Part shown: positions 1-52,376 of the stretch, one piece after another
How positions within the stretch are numbered: the stretch's first letter is position 1
How the letters are laid out: each line of letters begins with the position of its first letter
From: Clostridia bacterium
GTDB taxonomy: Bacteria > Bacillota > Clostridia > Christensenellales > UBA1242
Assembly: GCA_045639255.1 (NCBI GenBank)
Contig: JAZUCT010000011.1
Span: 14,357 to 78,356 of the forward strand
Length of the DNA: 64,000 nt
Direction: 5' to 3'
The notes under the pieces: model-generated
Seen by the model: the letters and a program-made list of their open reading frames with translations, nothing else
Databases searched by the model: none
What the model was told of the DNA's origin: nothing
Program-made: the position numbers and the translations under genes

Positions 1-811
1 AATATTTGTTATGTTTTTTAATTTCATCAAGCGCAAAATCTTTTATTGAAACTGAATTTTCGTCCACAAATTTAACACTTACTTTGCGTTTGAAAATATC
101 AAGGTAACTTACAGTGCCTTCGCCCAACTCTGTTTTAACTTTTGAATTAATTTTTGGCATATCTTTAAGCAATTCTTTATAAAGTTCATTTTCATAAGAA
201 AGGCAACACATAAGTCTGCCACACAATCCACTTATTTTTTGTGGGTTCAAACTTAAATTCTGTGTTTTTGCCATTTTTATTGAAACATTGGCAAATTCGG
301 TTAAATGCCCCTTGCAACAACATATTCTTCCACAAGGGCCCAATCCACCAAGAGTTTTAACTTCATCGCGAACACCAATTTGTTTAAGCTCAATTCTTAC
401 TTTAAAATTGCTTGCCATAAGTTTAACAAGTTCCCTGAAATCCACCCTATCTTCGCTTACATATAAAAACAAAGCTTTCGAACCATCAAAACTTACGGTA
501 ACTTCAACAAGTTTCATATCGAGTTTAAGTTTTTCAATAAGTTTTTCGGTTTCAATTCTTAAATTTTTTGCTTTTTCTTTGTTTTCTTCAATGCGTTGTT
601 CATCTTCACGGGTAAGAACCCTGTTAATGCTTAATTGTTCGGTGCAAACTTGTTCTTCAACCTTATGATTTGCTTTTTTTATTTTTGCAACTTTAAGGCC
701 TTCTTCGGTGTTAACCAAAACCTTTTGATTAACTTCATAGCTTCTGTTTGCAACACAAAAAGAAAGTTGATTTGTGTTTTCAAAACTTAAAATAACAACT
801 TCTATTTCCAT
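1..811 (-). CDS. ricT: PSP1-domain protein RicT/YaaT; 3' end runs off the window
   Basis: Not in the ORF track because no stop lies in the window. My translation from ATG 811..809 gives MEIEVVILSF...FKVRIELKQIGVRDEVKTLGGLGPCGRICCCKGHLTEFANVSIKMAKTQNLSLNPQKISGLCGRLMCCLSYE, the Cys-rich PSP1 core. The ATG overlaps the holB stop (ATGGAAATAG). The holB-yaaT order matches that of Bacilli and Clostridia. Confidence 0.8.
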   Translation of the reverse strand, partial: MEIEVVILSFENTNQLSFCVANRSYEVNQKVLVNTEEGLKVAKIKKANHKVEEQVCTEQLSINRVLTREDEQRIEENKEKAKNLRIETEKLIEKLKLDMKLVEVTVSFDGSKALFLYVSEDRVDFRELVKLMASNFKVRIELKQIGVRDEVKTLGGLGPCGRICCCKGHLTEFANVSIKMAKTQNLSLNPQKISGLCGRLMCCLSYENELYKELLKDMPKINSKVKTELGEGTVSYLDIFKRKVSVKFVDENSVSIKDFALDEIKKHNKY

Positions 812-1810: not shown

Positions 1811-3118
1811 TTAACTTAAAACTTCTTGGGCAATTTCGCCAATATCACCTGCACCAACAAACACAACATTAATGTTTTTTTGTGAAAGTTCGTTAACAAC
1901 CTTTTTTAACTTTGTTTTTGTGCCAATATAGGTAACATTGTTAAGTTGATTGCAAAGTTCTTTTGCACTTAATCCCATGCTTTTCGATTCTCGGGCTGAA
2001 TATGTTTTATAAATAATAATGTTATTATTTTTGTTAAAAAGTTCTTTAAAATCATTAAGCAGTTTAAGTGTGCGTGAATAAGTGTGCGGTTGAAAAATAA
2101 TAACATAAGGTTTGTTAAGTTCTTTTAAGGTGTTAATTGTGCTTTGAATTTCTGTTGGGTGATGTGCATAATCGCGAATTATGTTGCAATTGTTAAGTTT
2201 TCCAAGCACTTCAAATCGCCTTTTAACACCTTTGAAATTGTTAAGCCCTTTTTCAATATCGTTTTCACCAATTCCACAAAGTTTGCAAATGGCAATTGCA
2301 CAAAGTGCATTGTTTATATTATGTTTACCGACCACCGATAAGTTAATGTTTAAGTTTGTGCTTTCGTTAACAACTGAAAACGAATAACAACCATTTTCGT
2401 TCAGTGTTACATTAATTGGCACATATCTTGAAAGATAGTTAATGTGTTTTTTTATTTTATCGTTGGAATTTCAAATGGAAAACTTTGCAGTTTTTTGAAA
2501 TTTAATAAAGCAATTTTTAAGGTGATTTAAATTTTTATAGCATTCCATATGGTCGGGTTCAACATTTAAAACTGCACTTATTGTTGGTTTAAGTTTAAGC
2601 AGGTGTTTTTTATATTCACAAGCTTCGGTTATAAAATATTTATTGGCGCCAATTAAATAATTGGAATTGAACTGATTAATTATTCCGCCAATATGCGCTG
2701 TTGGGTTTAACCCCGCATAATAAAACACGCTGGCAAGCATGCCACAAGTTGTGGTTTTTCCATGCGTTCCAGAAACCGCAATAACTGTTTTATATTGGCT
2801 GGCAATAAGGTTTAAAAAATCGGCACGCTCCAAAACAATTTTGCACTTTTTTTGTGCAGTAACAAGTTCGCAATTTTGTTCACTAACAGCGCTGGTGAAC
2901 ACAACCATATCTAAGTTGTTATGTATGTTTTCGCTTTTATGTTTTAAATAAATTTTAACCCCTGCATTTTTAAGGTTATTAATGGTTTCGCTGTTTGCCC
3001 TGTCACTGCCAGAAACATTCATGCCCATGTTCAAACAATAATGTGCCAAAGCACTCATGCTTATTCCACCAATGCCAATGAAATGAATGTTTTTTATGTT
3101 GTTAAAAAAATTTCTCAT
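1811..3118 (-). CDS. murC: UDP-N-acetylmuramate--L-alanine ligase MurC, interrupted by one in-frame TGA (2473..2471)
   Basis: ORFs 2471..3118 (N-terminal half: IHFIGIGGISMSALA, GTHGKTTT, EPDHMECY) and 1811..2422 (C-terminal half: GKHNINNALCAIA, RRFE, DYAHHPTEI) are in the same frame (3118 and 2422 differ by 696 nt). Only the TGA separates them. The 16 codons after it (NSNDKIKKHINYLSRY) continue the MurC 'DD' strand region. Confidence 0.8.
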
Positions 3119-3191
3119 ATTTCATTTTATGAATTGGTGTTTTTTTTAGTTAAATAAATTTTTTAATGTTGCAAATTTTTAATTAATTTAG

Positions 3192-3221
3192 TTGCTTTTA
3201 ACATTAAATTTGTTTTATAAT
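3192..3221 (+). promoter_or_regulatory. Candidate sigma-A promoter for spoVG
   Basis: TTGCTT (3192-3197), 18-nt spacer, TATAAT (3216-3221), about 40 nt upstream of the spoVG ATG. The SD AAAGGGG precedes the ATG. Confidence 0.35.
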
Positions 3222-3261
3222 TTGTTTAAGCCAAAAAAAGCAAATAAAGGGGATTAACAAA

Positions 3262-3525
3262 ATGAAAATTACAGACATTCGTGTTCGCATTGTTAACAAA
3301 GATAAATTAAAGGCTTCTGTAAGCGTTACTTTTAACGATTGCTTTGTTGTGCACGACATTAAACTTATTGAAGGAAACAATGGCTTATTCATGAGCATGC
3401 CTTCAAGAAAAACTTCAACAGGTGAATTTAAAGATGTTGCACATGCAATAAATTCAGAAACAAGGCAATGGCTTGAAAAAGCAGTGCTTGATGCTTATAA
3501 TCAAGAACTTCAAAAAGCAGAATAG
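3262..3525 (+). CDS. spoVG: Septation/regulatory protein SpoVG
   Basis: 87 aa. MKITDIRVR...[36 protein letters not shown] is the canonical SpoVG N-terminus. Confidence 0.9.
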
Positions 3526-3554
3526 AGTTCTTAAACTGGCTTATTTAAACGAAA

Positions 3555-3583
3555 CAAAAAAGAGTGGTGTTCCACTCTTTTTT
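3555..3583. terminator. Bidirectional rho-independent terminator
   Basis: AAGAGTGG-TGTT-CCACTCTT stem-loop (3560-3579) flanked by an A-run and a T-run, between convergent spoVG and the 3594..6224 gene. Confidence 0.7.
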
Positions 3584-3593
3584 GTGTTTAATA

Positions 3594-6224
3594 TTAATAT
3601 TTGCAGTTTAAAAGTTTTGGATATTCATCAAGGTTAAATTCCCAAATATCAGTTTTAAAACCACGGCTTGTGAATGTTGAGCCTGATTCATAACCAACGC
3701 ATTTTTCATATGAAGTTGCACCATCTTTATCCACTGGAAGAATTGAATTTTCAAAAAGCACCCAGCGTTTTGCATTGTTCATTGTGTCAACATCGAACAC
3801 AATTAAATCGGTTGGAATGCCTGTTGGGTTCCATTCCCAAGGCCAAGCAGTGTTTGTGCAATGATAACTTGTTACAAAGTTGTTAAATGTGTTAAATGTT
3901 ACTGCAAGGAACATTGTGCCACAATAACTGTTTTCGTTTTCAAAAAGTTCAACTGCAATTCCTGCGCAAATGCTTTCGTCTGCCATGCCTTGCATTGTGC
4001 AAACAACGCTTACATTGTTAATTGTTATTTCTGGTGCAGTGTATGCAACACCACCAACTGCTGAACCGATTAAGTTGCCTTCAACAAAGGTTTCAACAAT
4101 GTTTGCTTTTTGTGAATATGCAACAACACCACCAACAAAACATGCTTCAATGCTTCCATCAAAGTGGCATTTTGAAATTTTTGCATAACTTGAAGCAAAA
4201 CCGCTTATTCCGCCTGCATAGTTTGTTGAATTCATGTCGGCTGTTATTGAGCCATTGAACAATGCATAACTTATGGTTGAAGTTGTTGTTCCAGCAATTC
4301 CACCAACATAAATATTGTTTGTGCCTGTTACTGAAATTTCAGAGTTACAAGAAATGTTGTGAACAACTCCATTATTCAAACCTGCAATTCCACCAACATT
4401 AACAATTTTTTCAGCGGTTTGTGCTGAAATTTTGTTGTTAACTGTGCAGTTTGAAACTGTGCCATTGTTAACACCACAAATTCCGCCAAGATTTTTAACA
4501 ATTCCGCCACCAATTGAGTTTTGGCTGGTTACAACACAGTTTGAAACCAATCCGTTATTTGTTCCAACAACAGTTCCAATGTTTTCACCCGCTGTGATTG
4601 AAACATTTTCAATTGTTAAGTTTAAGATTTGTGCTGTTTTGCCTGTTTCAGCAATTAAAGCACTGTTTTCGTTATTTGAAGTTATGTTTAAGTTTGAAAT
4701 TTTATAATATCTGTTTTCCGATTCGTTCCAGCCTGCTTCAAAAGTTCCGTTAAACACAAAGCAGTTTGTGTTTGTTAAACCAAGCGGTTTAAAATCTGCA
4801 TAGCCAGAAAGATCTAGGTCGGCCATAAGAACATATCTGTCGGTTGAAACCGATGCTTTTGCAAACACAGCAATTAAGTTTTCAACAGTTTTAATTTCAC
4901 CTTTAATTATTGCACTTGTGAAGTTATCTGCAACTGCTGGTGCAAGGAAGTCTATTTGTGGGTAACCATTGTTTTCTGCATTAATTAACCAAACAGAATT
5001 ATCCCATTTAATAAGTGAATTATCGAATGAAACATAAGAAACAAGGTTGTTTAAATCTTTAAGTTGTTCACTTGTTAAAATTTCATAGTTATAGTTTGAA
5101 CTTGCAATGCCAGTTACACCAACATCACATAGGGTTTCGGCTTCAACAAAATAGCAACCCATAATTATGTTTTCACGGTTATAACCGTTTGTGTTTTTAT
5201 AAATTAAACTTGCCCTGCCAATGCTGTTTGTGCTTATTTTTGAAATGCTGTAACAATCTTTAACATAGCAATCAAAATCGCCATAACTTTCGTTAAAGGT
5301 TATAAGCCCAGCAATGTTTGTGCTAACATTCGATGCGTTAAGATTACCTTTTGAATAACTGTTTATAATAATTCCGCCCTTATTGTTAACACAAATGCCA
5401 GCAACAGAGTTTCTTGCTGTTATTTCAACATCGCTTGCAACCCTATCAATTCTTGCAGAGGTTGTGCCTGTGCTTTGGTTAATGCAAGCAACACCAGCAG
5501 TTTTGCCGTTTGAAGCAGTGTTTGAAATTTGTGATGAAACAATGTTAATATTTGAAATTGTTCCAAAGTTTTCAGCGGTAACAATTGCAACTTGTGCAAA
5601 AGAACCTGTGTAAGAAAAGTTTGAAAGATTTAAATTATAAATTTCTGCACCACTTGCAACTTTTTCAAATAAGCCAAAATTTGTTACTGAACTTTCAGTT
5701 ACATTGTAAGTTGCGTTGCTTATTGTGCAGTTATTTCCATCAAAAGTGCCAGTTAAAGTGCCAAATCCAGCAAAATTTTCACCGGTTAAATCAATATCGT
5801 TAACCATTTTATAGTGGCTTGAAAGTGGCCTTTCTGCACTGCCAATGCTTAACAAATCTTGTTTGGTTTTAACAAAGAATGGATATTTTTCTGTTCCATC
5901 GCCAACAACCACTGAAACTGAAAAACTTTTATAGTTTTTGTTGGTTGTTTCAATTTTAAAAGTATATTCGCCACCTTTAACGGCTTTAAAAACATTTTCT
6001 TGGCTGGTTGTTTCAAGGCCTTCACCTGAAAGAATATAAGAATATTCAGTTTGCCTTTTTTTGTTAACAACATCGAAATTAATTTCAATTTCGTCGCCAT
6101 TATTTACATAAAAGTTTGCTTGAAGCAAGGTTATTTGTTCGTTATTCTTTAAAAACGCATAAGTTGTGAAACCCAAACTTACTGTAACAATAAGAACAAC
6201 AATAAACACCAAAAATCTTTTCAT
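3594..6224 (-). CDS. Large membrane-anchored or secreted surface protein with GLUG-type repeats
   Basis: 876 aa with an N-terminal hydrophobic anchor (FLVFIVVLIVTVSLGF). Many spaced GG(I/V)(A/C/S)G motifs (LGGICGVNNG, VGGIAGLNNG, VGGIAGTTTS, AGGISGFASS), typical of GLUG-repeat adhesin or IgA-protease-like proteins. Confidence 0.6.
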   Translation of the reverse strand: MKRFLVFIVVLIVTVSLGFTTYAFLKNNEQITLLQANFYVNNGDEIEINFDVVNKKRQTEYSYILSGEGLETTSQENVFKAVKGGEYTFKIETTNKNYKSFSVSVVVGDGTEKYPFFVKTKQDLLSIGSAERPLSSHYKMVNDIDLTGENFAGFGTLTGTFDGNNCTISNATYNVTESSVTNFGLFEKVASGAEIYNLNLSNFSYTGSFAQVAIVTAENFGTISNINIVSSQISNTASNGKTAGVACINQSTGTTSARIDRVASDVEITARNSVAGICVNNKGGIIINSYSKGNLNASNVSTNIAGLITFNESYGDFDCYVKDCYSISKISTNSIGRASLIYKNTNGYNRENIIMGCYFVEAETLCDVGVTGIASSNYNYEILTSEQLKDLNNLVSYVSFDNSLIKWDNSVWLINAENNGYPQIDFLAPAVADNFTSAIIKGEIKTVENLIAVFAKASVSTDRYVLMADLDLSGYADFKPLGLTNTNCFVFNGTFEAGWNESENRYYKISNLNITSNNENSALIAETGKTAQILNLTIENVSITAGENIGTVVGTNNGLVSNCVVTSQNSIGGGIVKNLGGICGVNNGTVSNCTVNNKISAQTAEKIVNVGGIAGLNNGVVHNISCNSEISVTGTNNIYVGGIAGTTTSTISYALFNGSITADMNSTNYAGGISGFASSYAKISKCHFDGSIEACFVGGVVAYSQKANIVETFVEGNLIGSAVGGVAYTAPEITINNVSVVCTMQGMADESICAGIAVELFENENSYCGTMFLAVTFNTFNNFVTSYHCTNTAWPWEWNPTGIPTDLIVFDVDTMNNAKRWVLFENSILPVDKDGATSYEKCVGYESGSTFTSRGFKTDIWEFNLDEYPKLLNCKY

Positions 6225-6333: not shown

Positions 6334-7047
6334 TTAATTAAATTTCATGTTTACAAAATATTTCTGCAAATATTCTTGCGGAAGATATTTATCCAGCAAT
6401 CTTCCAATAAAGGTTAATGGTTCAACGCCACTTCGTGCAAGAAAACATCTTATAAGTGCTGCCCAAGATATTATCATTATTGTTGAAAACACAACAATAA
6501 TAATTATGGTAACAATGTTTCCAATTTTATATGGAATTTTTTCCAGCATTTTTACAACAAGCGGATAAACATATCGAACAAGTGCAAAACCCATAAAACC
6601 CCAAGCAAGCGAAAACACAACAGTTGTTCTTCCATCAATGTTTGTGAACACATTGGAATAATCCCACGAAGTTGTGTTGGTTAAAATTTCTTGCAACCAC
6701 GAACAAATATATTCCACAGCCCCGCCAACAATTGCGCCATATGTTATTTGGTGATACCATTCTTTAAACCTTGAAAGCACCAACACAAACCCCACAACAC
6801 CAAATCCATAAAGTGGGTTAAATGGAAGCCACAATGTTCCTGCCCTGGATTCCCATGAACCAGTTGCAAGAATTGTTAAAATTTCTTCATATAAAGTGCC
6901 TAAAAAACCACCCAACAGAAACATATAAACATAACTATATTTCGCCATTGTGTGTTTGTTTTTTTTATTGTTAAGTTTATTTCTGGTTTCTTGTTCGTTA
7001 TTTTTATAACTTTCAAAAGTTAAAGGTTGCTTTTGCGCATTAACCAT
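6334..7047 (-). CDS. Polytopic membrane protein (resembles the 'putative ABC-transporter type IV'/DUF1113 family)
   Basis: 237 aa with several hydrophobic helices. The motif FLLGGFLGTLYEEI...RAGTLWLPFNPLYGFGVVG recalls that family. Assigned from memory only. Confidence 0.4.
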   Translation of the reverse strand: MVNAQKQPLTFESYKNNEQETRNKLNNKKNKHTMAKYSYVYMFLLGGFLGTLYEEILTILATGSWESRAGTLWLPFNPLYGFGVVGFVLVLSRFKEWYHQITYGAIVGGAVEYICSWLQEILTNTTSWDYSNVFTNIDGRTTVVFSLAWGFMGFALVRYVYPLVVKMLEKIPYKIGNIVTIIIIVVFSTIMIISWAALIRCFLARSGVEPLTFIGRLLDKYLPQEYLQKYFVNMKFN

Positions 7048-7174
7048 AACCCAAAAATCTCCTTACTAAAAATTTTATGATATTTTAACATATTAAGTTA
7101 ATTTTTTGCAACTTTATTAATTATTAAAATAAAAAAAATCAAACTTTGAAATTTGATTTTTTTAAAGTTTATTT

Positions 7175-7600
7175 CTAGTTAAATTTTCTAAGCACGGTTT
7201 GAACATCTTTCATATCCACTTTTCCAGCATATTCTGCTTTAAACTTTTTCATAACGGTTGGAACAGATTTATCTGGCATAGGTGCAATAATTTGTTCAAT
7301 TTCTTCCAAACTTAGCATTTTTGGAAGATAAGCCTTAACAATTTCAATTTGTTTTGAAATGTTTTCAACTTCTTCGGTGTTATTAACTTTTTTATAGTTT
7401 TCACATTCATCGGTAAGTTCTTTAACAGTTTTTTGTAAAATTGCAACAAGGTGAACATCTGTAACGCTTTCGCCTTTTTCACGAAGTTTAACTTCTTCAA
7501 GCAAGGCTTTGTTCATAAGCACACTTAAAATGCTTCTGGCTACTGCGTTTTTTTCTTTGAATGCTTTTATGTTATCTTTTTTAATTTGTTCAAGTATCAT
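7175..7600 (-). CDS. yqeY: GatB/YqeY domain protein
   Basis: 141 aa. The sequence from MILEQIKKDNIKAFKEKN to AYLPKMLSLEEIEQII and KAEYAGKVDMKDV fits the YqeY pattern. Confidence 0.75.
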   Translation of the reverse strand: MILEQIKKDNIKAFKEKNAVARSILSVLMNKALLEEVKLREKGESVTDVHLVAILQKTVKELTDECENYKKVNNTEEVENISKQIEIVKAYLPKMLSLEEIEQIIAPMPDKSVPTVMKKFKAEYAGKVDMKDVQTVLRKFN

Positions 7601-7739
7601 ATTTGTTTATCTCCTTAACATTAATAATAGCATATTTAATTGAAATTTGTTAACAAAATATTTAATCTTTTTAAAAATTTAATTGCCAAAAGTGTTAAAC
7701 TTACCTAAAATATTAATAATTATTTTAAAGGAGTTTTTT

Positions 7740-28571: not shown

Positions 28572-30091
28572 TTATTCCTTTTTTATTATAAGTTTATTTC
28601 CAAATAATCGTTTTAAAACCTGCAATTTTTTATTTTTTTCGGTTTTTTGGTCTGTTTCAATTAATATATCATGGTTTGGCAGATATTTTGAAACAATATT
28701 TTGCAAAGTTTTAAGGTTTTCTGGCACTTCCATAAGATTTTTATTGCTTTCACCAGCAAAAATTATGAACTTATTGTTTTCAATTTTCACTTCGGTAACT
28801 TCACCACAAGCAACAAACAAAATGCCAGTTTTATTGTTTCTAAGTTCGGTTATCACCTTGCCCCACACTGAATTAGGTGAAACTTGTGAACTTTGTTTTG
28901 GCAAAGCGGGGCTTTGCTTTGCCTTTATTCGTTTTTTAGTATGTCTGCAATTTGTTGTTCAATTTTGTTAAAGCGATTTTCAATATCTTGCAAATTAAAG
29001 TTATTTTCGGTTAAAATTGCTTCCAAACTTATTGTTTCAAAAGCAATTCGTGGATTGCTTGCAAATTTTAAAGTTTGCTCGGCATTGCCAAACTTTTCAA
29101 GGCAAGAAAGCAATTTTGAAACGCTTGCAGTTTTTGCTTGCTGTTGCATTTTTTCAAAAACATCGGCTGGCAGGTTAAGAAGCAAGTTTGCATTTTCGCA
29201 ACTGTTAATAAGCACCAAATCTCTGAAATGATTGGTTAAATCACGGTTTAACATATTAACACTTTTTCCGCCCGATAGAATTTCGGTAAGAAGTGTTATA
29301 TAAGCATTAACATTTTTGTTTAAAATATATCCAACAAGTGAAATTAAAGTTTCTTTGCTGGCAGATCCCAACACTTGCAAGGTTTTTGAAAAAGTTACAT
29401 TGTTTGCACAGTAACTTGCACACATATCGGCAACTGAAAGTGCATCACGCACACTGCCTTCGCCCGCTTTTGCAATAAGGTCAAGGGCAGGTTCTTCATA
29501 ACTTATTCCGCTTTCGGCATAAACTTTGCCAATGTGTTTTGCAAGTTCAACATAATCCACCAATCTGAAATCAAACCTCATGCAACGGCTTAAAATTGTT
29601 GCAGGAAGTTTTTGAACTTCGGTGGTTGCCAAAATGAAAACTGCGTGTGCAGGTGGTTCTTCCAAAGTTTTTAAAAGTGCGTTAAATGCACTGTCGGTTA
29701 GCATATGAACTTCATCGATTATATAAACTTTATATTTGCCAACAACTGGTGCATATTTAACTTTTTCCCTTATTTCCCTGATTTCATCAACACGGTTATT
29801 GCTGGCAGCATCAATTTCCAAAATATCCATATTTGCTGGGTTAGAAAGTGCTTTGCAGGCTTCACATTCAAGGCAAGGTGAACCGTTAACCGAATGCAAG
29901 CAATTAATGGCTTTTGCAAAAATTTTTGCGCAAGAAGTTTTGCCTGTTCCCCTTGTTCCAGTGAATAAATAAGCATGGCTTATTGCATTGTTTTTAATTT
30001 GGTTTTGCAATGTTGTTGTTATGTGATTTTGCCCCACAACTTCTTCAAAAGTTTTTGGGCGATATTTTCTGTAAAGTGCCAAATAACTCAT
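28572..30091 (-). CDS. dnaX: DNA polymerase III tau/gamma (DnaX). Two frames joined by a putative -1 frameshift at 28937..28931
   Basis: ORF1 (28925..30091; start ATG 30091 after AAAGGAAG) carries the AAA+ clamp-loader domains (GTRGTGKTS, zinc module CxxCxxC, DEVHML, SRC). ORF2 (28572..28904, open upstream in the -1 frame) has the pattern I associate with the DnaX C-terminal domain (VWGKVITELRNN...). The frames meet at A_AAA_AAC. Confidence 0.8.
28900..28937 (-). promoter_or_regulatory. Candidate -1 programmed ribosomal frameshift signal in dnaX
   Basis: The minus strand reads CTA_AAA_AAC GAA TAA. The heptamer A AAA AAC is at 28937-28931, followed by a 7-nt spacer and the hairpin GGCAAAGC-AAAGCCCC-GCTTTGCC (28923-28900). 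Confidence 0.6.
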
Positions 30092-30204
30092 ATAATGCTT
30101 CCTTTTAAATTTCAAAAAATATTATATCATTTTTGCATTTATTTAGCAAATAAATATGTTGGGCAAACAAACAAAAAAGTTGATAAAAATATCAACTTAA
30201 TTGT

Positions 30205-30463: not shown

Positions 30464-33403
30464 TTACCTCTCTAACTCGTCACTTTTATAAACAACATAT
30501 TGGTTATCAAAACTATCCCCCGCATAACCTTTGCCATCTAAATCATACGATCCATAGTTAATTGGCTTATACACTTTGCTTTTTTTGTTATATTTCAAAA
30601 TAACACTTGTTAAATCGTTTCTGCCCATTCCAACAGTTATTATTTTAAGCGGTTTTTTGTTTTCTTGGTTATATTGTTCCATAAATGCCCTTGCACCAAG
30701 CATAAACTTTTCATAAATTTCTTCTTCATCGTTTTCATAAATGTTAAAGTTGCAAACTTCAACATTGTTAAACACTGCATAACCTTGTTCTTTGTTAACA
30801 TAAAGGGTGGATTTTGCAATAATGGTTCCTTTATTGTTTCTTATAACCAAATTTTGCACGCTTGGGTGAATAATGCTGGCACTCATAATGCCTGCGCCCA
30901 TACCTTCAAGGTGTGCACAGCAGTTGCAAAGCTTGCCCAAAACAAAGTTGAGTGGGTCGGCTTTGTTTAACCATTCAAAAGTGAAGTTTTCTGCCGTGTT
31001 AACAGCGCTGTTAACTGAATTGAAACAAAAATTTTCGCATTTGTTAAGGTTTGAATCAAGTTTGCTAAGTTTATTCAAATAAATATCTTCATTAAGTGGT
31101 GAAGACAAAATGTTATCCTTAATTTTTTCTTTAAAGTTAATATATTTTTTATGTTTTTTTATTTCTTTAAGGTTGCCCGATTCAATGGCTGCAAGAACTT
31201 CATACATTTTAATAAGGCTCAAATTATTTTTCAGTTCATAACCCATTTTGTTGGCATTAATTATTCTTGCATTATTAAATGCCCTTTGTGAATCGTCAGC
31301 AGCAAAATATTTAAGCACAACTTTTGCAATATGTTGGTTGTGTTCGTTAACCCCAATAAGTTGCCTTAATGCATAGTTATAGAAATGTTCAACCGTTGGT
31401 TTAAGTTGGCGTTGCGAACCTTTATTGCTGGTGTTAGATTCTTGAATTTCTTCAAAGTTGTTATAACTTCTTGAAATAAAGCCTGTAACTTCTTTTTCCG
31501 CTTTCCACATTTCATCAAAAATATATGTGTGCTTATCCTTTTTGGAAATCAAGAAGTCTGTGAATTCTTTTTTAAATCCATAAATTTTCATATCCTTAAA
31601 TGCATCAACCAAATCTTCAACGGTTATATTTCTGTTGGTTAAAATAAAGGTTAAAAATTCTGAAATTTTTTGGTCGTAACTTATTTGCGTAACTTTTCCG
31701 CTTGCCGATTTGGTTTCATATGTTAAATTTTGAAAACCACCAAGATTATAGAAAAGCACACTTAAAAATTCCTTATCAAAACTGCCAAGCGCATACATAT
31801 TATCGAACTTCTTTTTAAGGGTTGCAATGAATTTATCGAACCAATCGAAGTTTAACAAATTAATAAATTCAACAAAACTTTTGCTTTGGTTGAGATGTTC
31901 TTTTGGAATAAAAATTAAGGAATTAACATAATCAATGTTTTTAATAATTTTTTGAAGATTTGAGTTGTTCCAATTGTTTAAAAAATCGAAAATAGTGCAA
32001 TTATAAGCGGTGTTTAATCTTTCTTGTGCTAAATTAATTTTTTCGAAATTTTTTAAACCAATTTTTTCATAATTTTCCCTGAACTGCATATCGTTCCAAT
32101 TTCTTAAAAAGAAATTTGCAAACCCGCTTCCCCTTACTTCAACATAATCGTTGCTTATTATTTTATTTGAAGTGAAAAACTTGTCGCCAATTTTACAAAT
32201 ATATTTTAATGCGCCACCTTTTTCAATGTTGCAAGTTGGCGAAATTTCAAAATAATCAAGTTTATGGCTATCTTCAAATGCATTTTCTTGAATGTTATAA
32301 AGGTTTGTTGGCATATTAATAATTTTTTCAATGTTAAAACAACAGTTGAAACAATCTTCTTCAATAAGTTTAAGGTTTGAACCTTCTTCAAATTCAACAG
32401 TTTTAAGTTTTTTGCAAATAAAAAATAATGATTTTGAAAGTGATGTTGCTTTGTTTGGAATTATAACACTTTCAAGGTTTGAACAAAGTCTAAAAACTTC
32501 GTTTGAAAAAGTGAAACTGTTTTCAAGTTTTGAAATGTTTACAGTTTTTAAGTTTGTGCAAGTATCAAAAGCATTGTTTTCAATTCTTTCAAGTTCGCCA
32601 GAAATGTTAACGCTTTCAATGTTTGATTCTGCAAAAGCAAACGAACCAATTTGTTTAAGTTTTTTAGAAAACTGAACTTCTGTTAAACTTTTACAACTGT
32701 AAAAAGCATTTTCGTTAATAAAAGTTACTTGCGATAAATCTGCACTTTTCAAACTTTCACACATTTTAAAACAATCAATGCCAACATAGTTAACAGAACT
32801 TAAATTTTCAAGTTCTTCAAGGTTAACACAATTTTTAAAGCAATCGTTTTCAAGTTTAATGCCTTCACTGAATTCAAGCCCATTTTTTAAAGCAAATTCT
32901 TGTTTTTGGTTTTGCGTTTTAAATTGAACCTGTTTTAAATTTTTGCAACCAAAAAATGCACCGCATTTTATTTGGTTAAGCATTTCAGGCAATGTTATTT
33001 GTTCCAAACCGCAATTATAAAAAACATGTTCTTCAATAACTTTCATTGTGCTTGGCAGTTGAATTGATTTAAGATTTGCACAATCTGCAAAAGCAAACTC
33101 GTTAATAAGTTTAACTGTTTTTGGCAAAACAACTTCTTGCAAACTTTTGCAATAATTAAAAGCATACTTGCCAATTTCAAGTTCAGGGTTTTTAAAAACA
33201 ACTTTTTTTACAGGCGAAAACGAAAATGCTTTGTTGTTAAGCGAAACATTTTCAGGAACTTCAATTTCAAATTCTTGTTGGCAATTTTCAAAAGCATTTG
33301 AGCCAATAAATCTTACCCCTTTCCAAAACTTTTCAGGATTTTTTGAAAGCAGTTTTAAATCGGCATCGGTAACTTTTAAAAGAACACCATTTTTCTTTTT
33401 CAT
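30464..33403 (-). CDS. Large BspA-type leucine-rich-repeat (LRR_5) protein with an unrecognised conserved C-terminal region, paralog 1
   Basis: 979 aa with no signal peptide. The N-terminal ~400 aa consists of repeats of the form AF.nC.sL..i.lP..v..I...aF. The C-terminal half is collinear with 35313..38189 (GSQRQLKPTVEHFYN; FEWLNKADPLNFVLGKLCNCCAHLEG). Confidence 0.65.
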   Translation of the reverse strand: MKKKNGVLLKVTDADLKLLSKNPEKFWKGVRFIGSNAFENCQQEFEIEVPENVSLNNKAFSFSPVKKVVFKNPELEIGKYAFNYCKSLQEVVLPKTVKLINEFAFADCANLKSIQLPSTMKVIEEHVFYNCGLEQITLPEMLNQIKCGAFFGCKNLKQVQFKTQNQKQEFALKNGLEFSEGIKLENDCFKNCVNLEELENLSSVNYVGIDCFKMCESLKSADLSQVTFINENAFYSCKSLTEVQFSKKLKQIGSFAFAESNIESVNISGELERIENNAFDTCTNLKTVNISKLENSFTFSNEVFRLCSNLESVIIPNKATSLSKSLFFICKKLKTVEFEEGSNLKLIEEDCFNCCFNIEKIINMPTNLYNIQENAFEDSHKLDYFEISPTCNIEKGGALKYICKIGDKFFTSNKIISNDYVEVRGSGFANFFLRNWNDMQFRENYEKIGLKNFEKINLAQERLNTAYNCTIFDFLNNWNNSNLQKIIKNIDYVNSLIFIPKEHLNQSKSFVEFINLLNFDWFDKFIATLKKKFDNMYALGSFDKEFLSVLFYNLGGFQNLTYETKSASGKVTQISYDQKISEFLTFILTNRNITVEDLVDAFKDMKIYGFKKEFTDFLISKKDKHTYIFDEMWKAEKEVTGFISRSYNNFEEIQESNTSNKGSQRQLKPTVEHFYNYALRQLIGVNEHNQHIAKVVLKYFAADDSQRAFNNARIINANKMGYELKNNLSLIKMYEVLAAIESGNLKEIKKHKKYINFKEKIKDNILSSPLNEDIYLNKLSKLDSNLNKCENFCFNSVNSAVNTAENFTFEWLNKADPLNFVLGKLCNCCAHLEGMGAGIMSASIIHPSVQNLVIRNNKGTIIAKSTLYVNKEQGYAVFNNVEVCNFNIYENDEEEIYEKFMLGARAFMEQYNQENKKPLKIITVGMGRNDLTSVILKYNKKSKVYKPINYGSYDLDGKGYAGDSFDNQYVVYKSDELER

Positions 33404-35312: not shown

Positions 35313-38189
35313 TTAAAGTTCAATTTCTGCATCGGTAAGTTTAACAAGCACATGTTGTTTATCAAGGCTGTCACCGGTGTAGCCACATTTATCAACATCA
35401 TATTCGCCATAGTCAATGGATTTATATATTTTTGATGAAGCGTGGTTTGCCCTTATAATATCATATAAATCATTCCTATCCATTCCCACAGTTAAAATTT
35501 CAAGTGGTTTTGAATTTTCTTTGTTATATTGCTTAAAAAATGCCCTTGCACCAAACAAAAGTTTTTCATAAATTTGTTGTTTGTTTTCGTTTTGATTAAA
35601 AGCAACTTGAACGGTGTTGAACACGCCATAGCCTTGTTTTCTGTTAACATAAAGGGTGGCTTTTGCAACAATTTTGCCTTCGCCATCACGCACAACCAAA
35701 TTTTGAACATCTGGGTGAATTATGCTTGCATTCATAATGCCATATCCTGCACCTTCAAGGTGTGCACAGCAATTGCAAAGTTTGCCAAGCACCAAATTAA
35801 GCGGGTCGGCCTTGTTAAGCCATTCGAAAGAAAATTCGTTGTTTGCAATGTTTGTTAAGTTCTGCAAAGTTTTAACGCTTAAATCTTGGCATTGTTTAAT
35901 TTTTGCATCTAAAACACTAAGTTTATCCAAACAATCTTTTTCGCTAAGGCTTGTTGAAAGAATGTTTTCGCCAGCAATTTCGCTTTGCTTTTTAAGTTTA
36001 TAATGCATTCTTAATTTTCTTAATTGCTCTTTGTTACCCGATTCAATGGCATCAAAAATTTCTTTCTTCTTTTCTGCGCTTATGTTTTCTTTCAGTTCAT
36101 AACCCAAACGATTTGCATTAATTTCCCTTGCAAAATCAAAGGCTTGTTGGGCAAAACTGCCTTGATAATATTTTTTAACAATTTTTGCAATATGTGTGTT
36201 GTGTTCAGTTATTCCATCTATTTTAAGAAAAATGTTATAAAAACTTTCAACGGTTGGTTTAAGTTGTTCTTGCGAACCACGATTTCTGGTGTTTGCCAAT
36301 TGCACTTCTTCAAAGCAGTTATAACTTTCAGCAATGAACGAATCGAATTCTTTTGAAACTTGCATCATTTCATCAAAAGTTAAAGTGTGCCTATCTTTTC
36401 GGCTTAAAAGAAAATCTGTGAATTCTTGTTTAAAACCTTCAATTCGCATATCATAAAACTTATAAACAAGTTTTTTGGTTGTAAGTTTTCCGCTTAAAAT
36501 TAAGTTTGAAAAAAATTCACTTACTTTTTGGCCATAATCAACTTCGCCATGCGGGGTTTCAACAATTTTTTCCATTCCGCCAAGGTTAAAAAATATTTTA
36601 AACAAAATTTCTTTTTCAAAGTTTGAAAGAAATTCAATTCCAATATCCTTTTTTCTAAGCGTTGAAACAAAAGTGTTAAACCATTTAAGCGAAAGTTCGT
36701 TTGCAACATCAACAATGTTTTTGTTTTGCCAATTACTTACAACTTTATAAACATCAATATTAAGAAACTCGGCATTTTTTATTAATAATTTAACGCTTGG
36801 TAAATCGCGTTTATCAATCAAATCGGTTAAAACTGTTGAAAACTTAAAAACATCTTCTGCATAAAATTTTTTTGCAACTGTTAGTATTTTGTTAAGTTCA
36901 TCTTCACTTATTTTTTCAAAGTTTTGCCTGAAAGTTTTGTTATTCCAGTTTTCAATAACCGAAACTGCAACACCTGAATTTATGCCAAGTTTAACCCAAT
37001 CGTTGCCCATTGGTTCTGATGAAGTAAAGAACTTGCCATTCACTTTGCACAAATAAGTTAAAAGCGCACCTTGGCTTATGTTATTGTTGTTTAAGTTGTT
37101 AATGTTGCGTGGAATTTCAAAACATTTAAGTTTTGAACAACCAGCAATTGCATCTTTTTTAATAATTAAATTTTGTGGTTTAAAATTTTCAAACTGTTCA
37201 AGTTCACAGCAGTTTTTAAAGCAATCGGCTTCAAACAACATTATATGTGCATCTTCAAATGTAACTTTTTTAAGATTGGTGCAATTTTCAAACAATCCCC
37301 TTGAAATTGTGGTTAATTTTTCTGGAATATAAATTTGTTTTAAATTTTCACAATCGGCAAAACATCTTTCACGAATATATATTGATGAATATGCACTTTT
37401 GTTGTTAAGATTAATGTTTTCAATAAACTTACATTTTGCAAATGCAAATTTTCCCAACACCCAAAGTTTTGTGTTTGAAAAATCAACGCTTGTAAGTTCG
37501 GTGTTATAAAAAGCATTATCTTCAATTGCGTGCAATTCTTCATAGAATTTAACTTTGCTAAGCGACATGCAATTCATAAACGCTTTTTTAGGAATAAGTT
37601 TTAATAAAGATAAATCTATTTCTTTTAATTCAAAACAATTTTCAAAACAAGCATCTTCAATGTTAATAACATTTTCAAAATTTTTAACTTCTTCAAGGCT
37701 TACACAATTTTTAAAGGCTTCGTTTTTAATAAAAATAACATTTGTGAAAATTTCAGTGTTTTCTTGTTGTTTTGGAAACTCAACTTTTTTTAACTTTAAA
37801 CAATTTTTAAATGCAAAATCACCAACCGATTTAACAGAATTTGGCAAAGTTATTTCTTTAAGCCCACTTCCGTTAAAGCAATTAACACCAATTTCTGCAA
37901 TTGTGTTGGGCAATTCAACCTTTCTAAGTTGCGAACAACCCATGAACAAACTTTCTGGCAACTTAACAAGTTTTCTGTTAATTTTAACAAAGTTAACATT
38001 GCTTTGGGCAAATGCATAGTTAAAAACATTAACCATTGCAGGCACTTCAATATCAAACGATTTAAGGCATTTTTTAAATGCATATTCGCCAATTGCCAAA
38101 ACATTTTCCCAGAATCTATCTGGGTTTTTGTTAAGCAATTCTAAATCGGCATCTTTAACTTCTGTTAAAATGTGATTTATTATTTTCAT
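35313..38189 (-). CDS. Large BspA-type LRR protein with the same conserved C-terminal region, paralog 2
   Basis: 958 aa, collinear with 30464..33403 from the N-terminus (VKDADLELLNKNPDRFW) to the C-terminus (FEWLNKADPLNLVLGKLCNCCAHLEGAGYGIMNASIIHP). Confidence 0.65.
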   Translation of the reverse strand: MKIINHILTEVKDADLELLNKNPDRFWENVLAIGEYAFKKCLKSFDIEVPAMVNVFNYAFAQSNVNFVKINRKLVKLPESLFMGCSQLRKVELPNTIAEIGVNCFNGSGLKEITLPNSVKSVGDFAFKNCLKLKKVEFPKQQENTEIFTNVIFIKNEAFKNCVSLEEVKNFENVINIEDACFENCFELKEIDLSLLKLIPKKAFMNCMSLSKVKFYEELHAIEDNAFYNTELTSVDFSNTKLWVLGKFAFAKCKFIENINLNNKSAYSSIYIRERCFADCENLKQIYIPEKLTTISRGLFENCTNLKKVTFEDAHIMLFEADCFKNCCELEQFENFKPQNLIIKKDAIAGCSKLKCFEIPRNINNLNNNNISQGALLTYLCKVNGKFFTSSEPMGNDWVKLGINSGVAVSVIENWNNKTFRQNFEKISEDELNKILTVAKKFYAEDVFKFSTVLTDLIDKRDLPSVKLLIKNAEFLNIDVYKVVSNWQNKNIVDVANELSLKWFNTFVSTLRKKDIGIEFLSNFEKEILFKIFFNLGGMEKIVETPHGEVDYGQKVSEFFSNLILSGKLTTKKLVYKFYDMRIEGFKQEFTDFLLSRKDRHTLTFDEMMQVSKEFDSFIAESYNCFEEVQLANTRNRGSQEQLKPTVESFYNIFLKIDGITEHNTHIAKIVKKYYQGSFAQQAFDFAREINANRLGYELKENISAEKKKEIFDAIESGNKEQLRKLRMHYKLKKQSEIAGENILSTSLSEKDCLDKLSVLDAKIKQCQDLSVKTLQNLTNIANNEFSFEWLNKADPLNLVLGKLCNCCAHLEGAGYGIMNASIIHPDVQNLVVRDGEGKIVAKATLYVNRKQGYGVFNTVQVAFNQNENKQQIYEKLLFGARAFFKQYNKENSKPLEILTVGMDRNDLYDIIRANHASSKIYKSIDYGEYDVDKCGYTGDSLDKQHVLVKLTDAEIEL

Positions 38190-48878: not shown

Positions 48879-49508
48879 ATGAAACAAAACAATTATCAAA
48901 TTTTTTTATCAACACTTTCAAAAGTTAAAGGGCTTGAAAAAAAGCCCACACTTTTGTTGCATTGCTGTTGCGCACCATGTTCCACCGCCAGCATTTTGCA
49001 AATTAAAGATTATTTTGATATAACAGTTTTCTATTATAACCCAAACATTTCGCCAAAAGAAGAATATTTAAAACGCAAAACCGAACAAATTAATTATATT
49101 AAAGCAATTGCACCAAATAACGAAATTAAGTTTGAAGATTGCGATTATGTTCCAACCGAATTTTTTAACATTGCAAAGGGTTTGGAACATTGTGCCGAAA
49201 AAGGCGAAAGGTGCCTTAAATGCTATGAACTAAGAATGGAAAAAACTTGCAAAGTTGCCAAAGAAAAGGGGTTTGATTTTTTTGCAACCACCCTTACACT
49301 AAGCCCACTTAAAGAAGAAACTGCAATTAACGAAATTGGGTTAAAATTGCAACAAAAACATCAAATGCCCTACTTGGTTTCAAACTTTAAAAAGAACAAT
49401 GGATATTTAAAAAGCATTGAACTTTCAAAGCAGTTTAACTTATACAGGCAAGATTATTGTGGTTGTGTTTATTCAAAACTTAACAAAAATAAGCACTTTG
49501 AAAATTAA
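48879..49508 (+). CDS. queH: Epoxyqueuosine reductase QueH (DUF208)
   Basis: 209 aa. LLLHCCCAPCS and the C-terminal YRQDYCGC signature. Confidence 0.8.
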   Translation: MKQNNYQIFLSTLSKVKGLEKKPTLLLHCCCAPCSTASILQIKDYFDITVFYYNPNISPKEEYLKRKTEQINYIKAIAPNNEIKFEDCDYVPTEFFNIAKGLEHCAEKGERCLKCYELRMEKTCKVAKEKGFDFFATTLTLSPLKEETAINEIGLKLQQKHQMPYLVSNFKKNNGYLKSIELSKQFNLYRQDYCGCVYSKLNKNKHFEN

Positions 49509-49529
49509 ATAAATAAAGGATTTTTTAAA

Positions 49530-50640
49530 ATGTTAATTGAAGATATAAAAAACAAAACAAGTGAAATAAGTGAAACTTTAAGTTATATAAAGGAGTGTCT
49601 TTGACTATTCAAAACTTATTGAACAGCGAAACACACAAAAACAGTTAACCGAAGGTGCAGATTTTTGGCTTAACCCAGAAAATGCACAAACACAACTTAA
49701 AAAACTTAACCAACTTGAAAACAAAATTGCCAACATTTTAAAACTTGAAAAAATGTTGGAAAATGTTACTTTTATGTTGGAACTTTATGAACTTGAAAAC
49801 AATTCAGAAACTTTTAACTTGCTTGAAAAAGAAGTTATTGAATGTTTGCAGTTTGCAGATAACCTTAAAACATCAACACTTCTTAACGGAAAGTATGATA
49901 ACAATCCGGCAATTGTAACCATTCACGCAGGAAGTGGTGGAACAGAAAGTCAGGATTGGGCAGAAATGCTGTTAAGAATGTATGCAAGGTTTTGCGAACG
50001 AAATGGTTTTGAAATGGAAATAACCGACCATATTGCTGGCTTAGGCGCTGGAATTAAAAGTGTTGAATTTTTGGTTAAAGGCGAAAATGCTTTTGGCGTG
50101 TTAAGTGCCGAAAAAGGTGTGCACAGGCTTGTGCGAATAAGTCCGTTTGATAGCAATGCACGCAGGCACACTTCGTTTGCCAGCGTTGAAGTTATTCCTG
50201 AAATTGAAGATATAAAGGGTGTTGAAATTAACCCAGATGATTTGCGAATTGATACTTTCAGGGCAAGCGGTGCTGGTGGCCAACACATTAACAAAACCGA
50301 CAGTGCTGTGCGCATAACACATTTACCAACAGGCATTGTTGTTTCCAGCCAAAATCAGCGAAGCCAAATTCAAAACAAAGAAACCGCATATCAAATGCTG
50401 GTTTCGAAACTTATAAGTTTGCAAATTCAGCAGAAAAAAGAAAACATCAAGCAAATTCAGGGCGAAGTTAAGGCAAACGAGTGGGGAAGCCAAATTCGAA
50501 GTTATGTTTTTTGCCCTTACACAATGGTTAAAGACCATCGCACAAACTTTGAAACCAGCAATGTTTCGGCTGTGCTTGATGGCGAAATTATGGAATTTAT
50601 TAACGCATATTTAAAGGTGCGTGCAAAGGAGAAAAATTAA
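49530..50640 (+). CDS. prfB: Peptide chain release factor 2, with the canonical +1 programmed frameshift at CTT TGA C (49599-49605)
   Basis: ATG 49530 opens 24 codons ending ...KECL, then TGA at 49602. The +1 frame (from 49603) runs on into ORF 49753..50640 ([21 protein letters not shown]). An SD-like AAGGAG (49590-49595) lies 3 nt before CTT. Confidence 0.9.
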
Positions 50641-51695
50641 TGAGTTACAACATGAAACTTGAAATTGAAAAACTTCAAAAGCAAAAAGATGTAACAATTC
50701 TTGCAATTGAAAGCAGTTGTGATGAAACCAGCATTGCCGTTGTAAGAAATGGCCGAGAAGTTCTTTCAAATGTTATTTCCAGCCAGATTGAAATTCACAA
50801 ACGCTTTGGTGGTGTTGTGCCAGAAGTGGCAAGCCGAAATCACACAATGTGCATTTCGTCTGTTCTTAACCAAGCGCTTGAACAAGCAAACCTAACTTTA
50901 AACCAAATTGATGCAATTGCTGTAACTTATGGTGCTGGGCTTGTGGGGGCGTTGCTTGTGGGTGTTAGTTTTGCAAAATCGCTTGCCTATGCACTTAAAA
51001 AACCGCTTATTGCAGTTAACCATATTCGTGGCCATGTAAGTGCAAACTTTATTGCTCATAAAGAGTTAACACCGCCTTTTGTTTGCCTTATTGTAAGCGG
51101 TGGACATTCAGCCATTGTTAAGGTTAATAACTATGTTGATTATTCGCTTATTGGCACCACGCAAGACGATGCTGTTGGCGAAGCAACCGATAAAATTGCA
51201 AGGGTTATGGGGCTAAGTTACCCCGGCGGGCCTAAGGTGGATAAACTTGCAAAAGAAGGCAAAAATGTTATTAAGTTTGTGAACTCTAACACTTTTGCCG
51301 ATAGTTATAACTTTTCATTTTCTGGCCTAAAAACTGCTGTTATAAACTATATTCACAAACAAAAACAAAATGGCGTGGAACTTAACATACCTGATATATG
51401 CTGTTCGTTTCAACACCAAGCAATTGATGGTTTGGTGGATAAAACAATTTTGGCTTGCAAACAACATAACATTAACAAAGTTGCAATTGCAGGCGGTGTT
51501 AGTGCAAACTCTTATTTAAGGGAACAACTTTCACTTAAAGCACAACAAAACAACATAACTGCTTACATTCCACCATTTGAATTTTGCACCGATAATGCTG
51601 CCATGATTGGTTCAATGGCATACTATAACTTAATTAACAATGTTGGGTTAAGCGATTTAACACTTAACGCAGTTCCAAACATTCCACTTGAATAA
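50640..51695 (+). CDS. tsaD: tRNA N6-adenosine threonylcarbamoyltransferase TsaD
   Basis: 351 aa. [20 protein letters not shown] and GGVSAN motifs. The ATG overlaps the prfB stop (TAATG). Confidence 0.95.
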
Positions 51696-51717
51696 AATTT
51701 TATTTAAAGTTAAAGAA

Positions 51718-51746
51718 ACAAAAAACAGCCGTTTGGCTGTTTTTTA
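51718..51746. terminator. Bidirectional terminator (repeated module AACAAAAAACAGCCGTTTGGCTGTT)
   Basis: AACAGCC-GTTT-GGCTGTT hairpin (51724-51741) between an A-run and a T-run. The same 25-mer recurs at 58770-58794. Confidence 0.65.
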
Positions 51747-52376
51747 ATTAAAGAATGTTTTAATATATTCAAACAATTCGCTTCCACTTGTTTGTGTTAT
51801 TATGTGGAACGATGATGCTTGGTTTGAGTTAATGAAATAAATTTTTGACGATGTTAAACTTTCGTTGTTGTTAATTTCAATTAAAATTTTAACATATTTT
51901 TTGCTGGCAGAACTTAAATCGTTTGAGTTATATTCTTCGCCATTAAGCATTATATGTTGTTCTTCACTGAATGAAAGGCACGCATATTTAACACTTTCGT
52001 TTGTGTTCATTGCAATGTTTGAAAGAATTGATGGTTCATAGTCATACACAATTTCATCTTTTGCAAAAAGTTTTCCGCTGAATAATGCATATGCCAAATT
52101 ATCTGTTCTAAGTGTGTTTTTAATTTTGTTAACCGCTTGGTTATATTTTTCAGTGTTTGAATCTTTCCAAATTTGAGTTGAAACACCGCCATTTTGATAA
52201 AACGAAACTGATTGAACTTTATCAAAATTAAAATTCACTGCAAGTTTAACTGGAATAAAGTTTAAGCAAATTAATGCAATTCCCACAACTGCAATAACAA
52301 TAAACATTATTTTAAGAAGAAGATTTTTTTTGCTTGGAACTTCTTCAATAATTAAATCTTTGTTAATTTCTTCCAT
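51744..52376 (-). CDS. Membrane-anchored hypothetical protein
   Basis: 210 aa with a single N-terminal TM helix (LLLKIMFIVIAVVGIALICL). Lies directly downstream of ftsH. No motif recognised. Confidence 0.45.
   Translation of the reverse strand: MEEINKDLIIEEVPSKKNLLLKIMFIVIAVVGIALICLNFIPVKLAVNFNFDKVQSVSFYQNGGVSTQIWKDSNTEKYNQAVNKIKNTLRTDNLAYALFSGKLFAKDEIVYDYEPSILSNIAMNTNESVKYACLSFSEEQHIMLNGEEYNSNDLSSASKKYVKILIEINNNESLTSSKIYFINSNQASSFHIITQTSGSELFEYIKTFFN

Follow-up and report, generated by a model that had tools for sequence, protein, structure and literature searches.

A lone in-frame TGA in murC of an uncultured Clostridia bacterium is very probably a point lesion under the standard genetic code

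An in-frame UGA inside an otherwise intact bacterial gene has several described counterparts. In some lineages the codon has been reassigned, either to tryptophan (translation table 4: Mycoplasmatales, Hodgkinia, Zinderia, Nasuia, Stammera and the MGR clade of the Eggerthellaceae) or to glycine (table 25: Absconditabacteria and Gracilibacteria), and the marks by which UGA reassignment is recognized are UGA codons aligned with Trp, loss of prfB, the gene for release factor 2 (RF2), and a tRNA-Trp(UCA) (PMC13462651; gTranslate preprint). Bacterial selenoprotein genes have a single in-frame UGA, with a SECIS hairpin downstream of it, in an enzyme gene that is otherwise undamaged. In prfB itself RF2 is autoregulated through a cassette in which an SD-like element stands three bases upstream of a slippery CUU, followed by an in-frame UGA (PMC10798248). 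In draft genomes and MAGs, finally, internal-stop 'pseudogene' calls are made for intact, syntenic genes with a lone premature stop one step from the codon of the orthologue.

The subject of this comparison is the murC gene in a stretch of DNA of 64,000 nucleotides, analyzed over its whole length and referred to here as the window. With the table 4 systems it has in common an in-frame UGA in a housekeeping gene, a low GC content and the fact that no UGA-terminated gene is seen in the 64-kb window; it differs from them in that prfB is retained together with its UGA-dependent frameshift, the lone UGA stands at a serine position, UGG holds all the other 106 Trp codons, and relatives appear to use UGA stops. 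With the table 25 systems it shares an in-frame UGA, the location of this UGA in a gene of peptidoglycan synthesis and the low-GC, uncultured character of the bacterium, but it has one UGA in 51 genes, RF2 is present and the alignment column is not a Gly column. The likeness to selenoprotein genes lies in the single in-frame UGA of an otherwise intact enzyme gene, whereas the murC site has no SECIS-like structure, shows no Cys or Sec conservation among close orthologues and is non-catalytic. A textbook member of the prfB frameshift class is present in the window as well, with its TGA at 49602..49604; it is unrelated to murC and bears only on the question of UGA being read as a stop. When the murC site is set beside the internal-stop calls of draft genomes and MAGs, nothing substantive differs, and the case is unusual only in that murC is essential. 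The finding is an ordinary one, and the murC TGA is taken with high confidence to be a non-programmed point lesion in a gene read by the standard code.

The window has 33% GC and is 90% coding. It contains genes of replication and repair (holB, dnaB, dnaX, recR, dnaE, mfd, uvrC), translation (cysS, metG, pth, ribosomal proteins) and sporulation (spoIIE, spoVG), along with others such as ftsH and a desulfoferrodoxin gene, a content that assigns it to the chromosome of a walled, uncultured Firmicute of Clostridia type that forms spores. murC (UDP-N-acetylmuramate--L-alanine ligase; 1811..3118, minus strand) is read from 3118 to 1811 as a frame of 435 codons with a single internal stop and a terminal TAA. 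With the internal stop written as X, the protein matches the NCBIfam equivalog model TIGR01082 (murC) over residues 10–433 in one stretch, at 385.2 bits against a cut-off of 335.1. MurC homologues carry the Mur_ligase N-terminal, central and C-terminal domains (PF01225, PF08245 and PF02875), and the full-length match above the curated cut-off together with the three Mur_ligase domains places the gene among the MurC enzymes. Because the match runs as a single stretch above the cut-off, the two half-ORFs constitute one gene and not a chance juxtaposition. The original prediction had described these halves (2471..3118 and 1811..2422) as sharing a frame and being separated by the TGA, with no frameshift and no other lesion. 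Translation and the ORF list agree on the first point, the translation contains the one stop only, and the peptide context that had been quoted (...KFQKTAKFSI-stop-NSNDKIKKHINY...) is correct.

The TGA (2473..2471, minus strand) is murC codon 216, and the break comes after residue 215, within the central ATP-binding domain. In the 76 nt 3' of the TGA (2395..2470, minus strand) there is no SECIS-like hairpin, and no RBS or start for a separate C-terminal half; the next in-frame start past the TGA, a GTG at 2422, has no Shine-Dalgarno sequence. A split yet functional two-piece MurC was considered and is unlikely, given that the break lies inside the central domain and the second half has neither RBS nor start.

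Comparison with relatives establishes how the codon arose. In the protein collection the closer MurC lineages are P0002, P0003 and P0004, at 72%, 75% and 59% identity respectively, and all three, the closest lineages, have Ser at the aligned position; in the genome collection MurC is matched best by Clostridia MAGs, at no more than ~40% identity. At the nucleotide level the window has the codons ATT TGA AAT where sister-species contigs from independent runs (L017, L018, L019 and L021) have ATT TCA AAC, and the homologous codon is TCG in the locus that encodes P0003 (L032) and TCA in the one that encodes P0004 (L022). With TCA, TCG and TCA in the relatives, the TGA is the derived state, produced from the Ser codon TCA by a single C-to-G transversion at codon position 2. 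Among 119 homologues the column at codon 216 is occupied by V (32), I (32), A (11), Y (10), S (7), C (7), L (5) and T (5); these eight commonest residues cover 109 of the 119, and Trp and Gly are outside them. The suggestion that the TGA falls at a small or hydrophobic residue position is thus upheld by the column and by the Ser of the three closest relatives. Alignment against MurC orthologues had been named as a way of learning which residue the TGA replaces, and in the closest relatives the answer is Ser, not Trp or Gly.

The gene around the lesion is in good condition. At positions where the other three lineages agree, the window MurC has private changes at 4 of 103 in the N-terminal half and 3 of 101 in the C-terminal half; the same count in intact relatives gives 8 of 107 and 14 of 112 for P0002, and 6 of 105 and 7 of 105 for P0003. 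The dN/dS of murC against its relatives is ~0.1 in both halves. The signs of a decaying pseudogene (extra lesions, relaxed constraint, a C-terminal part in worse state than the rest) are absent from murC. The other 50 genes of the window are likewise intact, with no frameshift or nonsense lesion, and a search of the window for other lesions that would hint at sloppy assembly found none. A murC free of decay among intact neighbors means that the lesion is either extremely young or absent from most cells.

Only one sampling of the species is on record. The public copy of the window MurC, P0001, forms a singleton cluster with no second observation of the species in it, the 215-aa MurC fragment is not on record in the protein collection, and a scan of JGI metagenomes for MurC of the same species returned nothing above 57% identity. 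The other members of the DnaB cluster belong to a sister species, at 93–94% identity.

The course of events that best accommodates these observations would begin with a non-programmed C-to-G change that turned the ancestral Ser codon TCA into a stop. The allele as written would terminate after residue 215 and give an inactive MurC, bar trace near-cognate read-through; a walled Firmicute that forms spores needs murC, and the gene has neither other damage nor relaxed constraint. The change would then be absent from the bulk of the living population and would have entered the record as an error, or as a minority allele captured in the assembly of a once-sampled species. A viable population would not be expected to consist mainly of cells with a truncated essential gene, which favors an artefact or a minority allele, and for the same reason of essentiality an artefact or a very young allele is likelier than a settled pseudogene. 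We therefore infer that the lesion is artefactual or minority rather than fixed. Put in specific terms, the leading account is that a one-off assembly contains an error of sequencing or of the consensus, or has picked up a minority allele, and it commands about even confidence. The points against an artefact are that consensus substitution errors are uncommon and that, with the other 50 genes clean, the assembly looks clean.

Next most likely is a genuine, very recent nonsense mutation from TCA to TGA that is fixed or frequent in the population sampled, a serious contender that nevertheless falls short of even probability. The G is present in the deposited sequence, the rest of the window bears no sign of error-prone assembly, and the lack of decay in either half of murC is compatible with a lesion of very recent date. 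Survival of such a mutation would require either that near-cognate read-through of UGA by tRNA-Trp, at a low level, gives enough MurC or that the population was dying out. Termination at UGA is relatively weak when A comes next, and the context here is UGA-A; read-through of UGA in Bacillus subtilis, in work by Lovett et al. in 1991, is said to reach a few per cent. Set against this, the window has one copy of murC, a gene that walled bacteria cannot do without; the break in the central domain leaves a truncated product that would not work and no restart signal follows it, RF2 would compete with any read-through, and no second sampling of the species shows the allele persisting. Should the mutation prove both real and fixed, murC would offer a modest case from nature of an essential gene sustained by UGA read-through, and would hint that the lineage is primed for reassignment; nothing in the data demands this. 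The original prediction had listed four options for the TGA. Two of these, a recent nonsense mutation and a sequencing or assembly error, fit all the evidence; leaky read-through could play a part only as a by-product of a real mutation; and UGA as a sense codon fails on the presence of RF2, on the Ser alignment and on the single occurrence of the TGA.

This last option would have the lineage in an early 'ambiguous intermediate' state of UGA reassignment, to Trp or another residue, in which UGA stops have been purged, RF2 is retained and the murC TGA is translated; it is very unlikely, and the same low probability attaches to what it entails for murC, namely that the G at 2472 is real and fixed and that UGA is read at sufficient frequency, whether by tRNA-Trp(CCA) or by a tRNA(UCA) that went undetected, to keep the essential gene functional. 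Were it true, a spore-forming Clostridia lineage would stand at the threshold of stop-codon reassignment. In its favor are the low GC content of ~33%, the stop codons of the window (below), a public MurC entry that is full-length across the site, and the discussion, for another clade, of a hybrid state in which UGA is rare and prfB persists (PMC13462651).

The code is settled as standard by prfB, which is intact in the window and regulated by its frameshift. The gene (49530..50640, plus strand) is written in two frames joined by a programmed +1 frameshift, ORF1 (49530..49604) having 24 codons and ORF2 running from 49603 to 50640. The cassette at 49590..49605 (plus strand) reads AAGGAG TGT CTT TGA C, in which AAGGAG occupies 49590..49595, a 3-nt spacer follows, CTT occupies 49599..49601, TGA 49602..49604 and C 49605; the SD-like element, the CUU-UGA and a startless ORF2 in the +1 frame, by which this class of frameshift is defined, are thus all found there. 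In the ORF2 frame 54 open codons pass before an ATG, GTG or TTG is reached, and the PCRF and RF-1 domains lie in the ORF 49753..50640. The joined-frame product of 369 aa scores 484.7 bits on TIGR00020 (prfB), for which the cut-off is 370, while RF1 models stay below their cut-offs on the same product; both GGQ and the SPF motif specific to RF2 occur in it. RF2 is kept in 13 relatives at 75–87% identity, and the 16-nt cassette is identical in four of the related loci (L033, L034, L035 and L036), in which the rest of ORF1 is variable. An intact prfB with its SPF motif and with a UGA-dependent cassette under clear purifying selection argues against UGA as a sense codon.

Several features of the prfB region may be recorded beside this. 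The cassette TGA is the only in-frame TGA besides that of murC in real genes of the window. The entry in the protein collection, P0125, is a 295-aa fragment of ORF2 only, and annotation pipelines would call just ORF2. The block queH-prfB-tsaD (48879..52376) is conserved in comparison with L033, L035 and L036, and its flanks differ among relatives: downstream, L033 has rpmG-secE-nusG-rplK where the window has a 210-aa ORF and ftsH on the opposite strand, and in L035 dnaE and htrA lie upstream of the block. As judged from gene order, the differing flanks point to local rearrangements within the genus or family.

The distribution of TGA in other genes is consistent with the evidence of prfB. The murC TGA is the sole in-frame TGA in the 19,225 codons of the 51 window genes, against 106 TGG codons. 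Extending the count to ~122 long ORFs delimited by TAA or TAG, from the window and from non-redundant loci of the family, leaves it as the only mid-gene TGA; the remaining in-frame TGAs of these ORFs are just upstream of real starts, at extreme 3' ends or in antisense ORFs. By comparison, every gene of a true table 25 locus (L016, Ca. Vampirococcus) has 5–30 in-frame TGAs. The original prediction had held that a lack of other in-frame TGAs would favor a simple pseudogene or error, and as far as the window shows this is the situation. In place of the many UGAs aligned with Trp that a table 4 code would produce there is one UGA, at Ser, and prfB, whose loss accompanies such a code (PMC13462651), is intact at 49530..50640; for table 25, the frequent UGAs at Gly columns and the loss of prfB are likewise lacking. 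That all close relatives have Ser at the site, and that W and G are outside the eight commonest residues of the column, further argues against translation of the codon as either amino acid. Neither the window nor ten related loci contain any tRNA gene, which leaves some room for a tRNA with a UCA anticodon elsewhere in the genome. Reassignment of the kind in code 4 or code 25 was rejected, the grounds being prfB with its conserved cassette, the single occurrence of the TGA and the Ser alignment.

A point that stands against the standard code is the set of stop codons. The 51 confident genes of the window end in TAA (39) or TAG (12) and none in TGA, spoVG also ends in TAG, and this pattern resembles a TGA-free code. 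It is not a significant one. At the rate of distant low-GC Clostridia (3/65) the probability of finding 0 TGA stops in 54 is 0.08, at the family's own rate (2/75) it is 0.23, and when the lineage is set against the distant relatives in Fisher's test, p = 0.34; avoidance of TGA stops, being without significance against either the distant low-GC Clostridia or the family loci, was rejected as evidence of recoding. Among small intergenic genes no credible one ending in TGA was found in the window. The ORF 288..668 (plus strand) is the only ORF of at least 90 aa in the window that ends in TGA, and it was rejected as a TGA-terminated gene, being antisense to the PSP1 gene that comes after holB in relatives. 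Outside the window, one TGA-terminated gene was counted in L022, and in the sister species the homology of mnmG to solved MnmG structures ends at residue 615, with TGA as codon 620; the sister species probably ends mnmG with TGA, as read from this alignment, and relatives probably use TGA stops, which also weighs against UGA as a sense codon. As a general observation, TGA is a very rare terminator in the lineage (0/51 plus spoVG in the window, ~2/75 in the relatives L017–L022 and L033–L036), and RF2 is retained; in this small sample the rate does not differ significantly from that of other low-GC Clostridia. An intact RF2 with a UGA-dependent frameshift, a single TGA at a Ser position and the probable TGA stops of relatives together establish the standard bacterial code, in which UGA is a stop read by RF2.

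The public entry that seemed to support translation of the codon is P0001, a full-length MurC with W at the TGA site. In the same collection, calls on a sister-species locus (L033) also read through TGA: the mnmG call (1882..3774) overruns the natural end of the gene by 11 codons, and an SDR call (6869..7693) begins seven codons ahead of a TGA, with the obvious MKKLKIRNKTILITGGSSGIG start coming after that TGA. The metagenomic mode of Prodigal includes Mycoplasma table 4 models, and the gene caller evidently applied a model with TGA as sense to these low-GC contigs. This account of the W draws on the L033 read-through calls and on this property of Prodigal. With such a caller, the W is an annotation artefact and carries no evidence on the code. 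Large collections may contain mistranslated proteins from these low-GC Clostridia contigs. Two cautions follow from the case. A low-GC segment without TGA stops and with an in-frame TGA in an essential gene mimics a change of code, and one public gene caller translated the murC TGA as W and over-extended genes on sister contigs.

Less likely again is an older pseudogene made dispensable by another locus of the genome, either a second murC or the gene of an Mpl-type ligase, a reading that is left some room by a view of 64 kb of that genome. A second Mur ligase was not found within the 64-kb window, and the order spoVG-murC-holB-PSP1 is common to the window and to intact relatives, so that murC sits in the same context as its intact counterparts. 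The gene also has fewer lineage-specific substitutions than intact orthologues, equal halves and a dN/dS of ~0.1, and it contains neither a frameshift nor a second stop, all of which tells against an inactivation of long standing.

Programmed recoding of the TGA, as selenocysteine insertion or as regulated read-through, is the least probable explanation and scarcely credible, for all that selenoproteins are frequent in Clostridia and that 7 of the 119 homologues have Cys at the codon 216 column. When 86 nt around and after the TGA were folded, the MFE was -4.5 kcal/mol with z = 0.23, and 110 of 200 shuffles were as good; no SECIS stem-loop directly 3' of the UGA came out of the fold. Close relatives are all Ser, encoded by TCN and never by TGA or a Cys codon, and the column is variable (V/I/A/Y/S) and non-catalytic. 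There are no sel genes in the window, and an Rfam scan of the window found only an L10 leader and nothing at the murC TGA. Selenocysteine at the site was rejected for want of a hairpin and of Cys conservation, and the three results taken together (no hairpin, no Rfam match, no TGA or Cys in close relatives) make either selenocysteine or a conserved read-through site very unlikely.

Some other features of the window deserve mention. The L10 leader just referred to (RF00557; 25559..25706, minus strand) lies upstream of rplJ-rplL and scores 51.9 bits, the gathering score being 44. The dnaX gene (28925..30115, minus strand) is short, at 396 aa, with domains I–III only. After its TAA, at 28900..28923 (minus strand), there is a perfect 8-bp inverted repeat (GGCAAAGC ... 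GCTTTGCC), and the 3' arm of the repeat contains the TTG start of a 110-aa ORF (28572..28904) that has no family match. A frameshift lesion that had divided dnaX from this ORF was considered and rejected, as a clean stop lies between the two and there is no sign of a frameshift; the 110-aa ORF could be a separately encoded C-terminal part of tau or an unrelated small gene. Two BspA-type leucine-rich-repeat proteins, of 979 and 958 aa (30464..33403 and 35313..38189, both on the minus strand), flank a sigma-70-family factor, a SpoU methylase and mini-RNase III, and are probably surface proteins. Between a CvpA-like gene and dnaE, at 55639..58311 (plus strand), is a protein of 890 aa with a TraG P-loop, HerA (DUF87) and AAA_10, which may be the remnant of a conjugative or DNA-translocation module in an otherwise housekeeping context.
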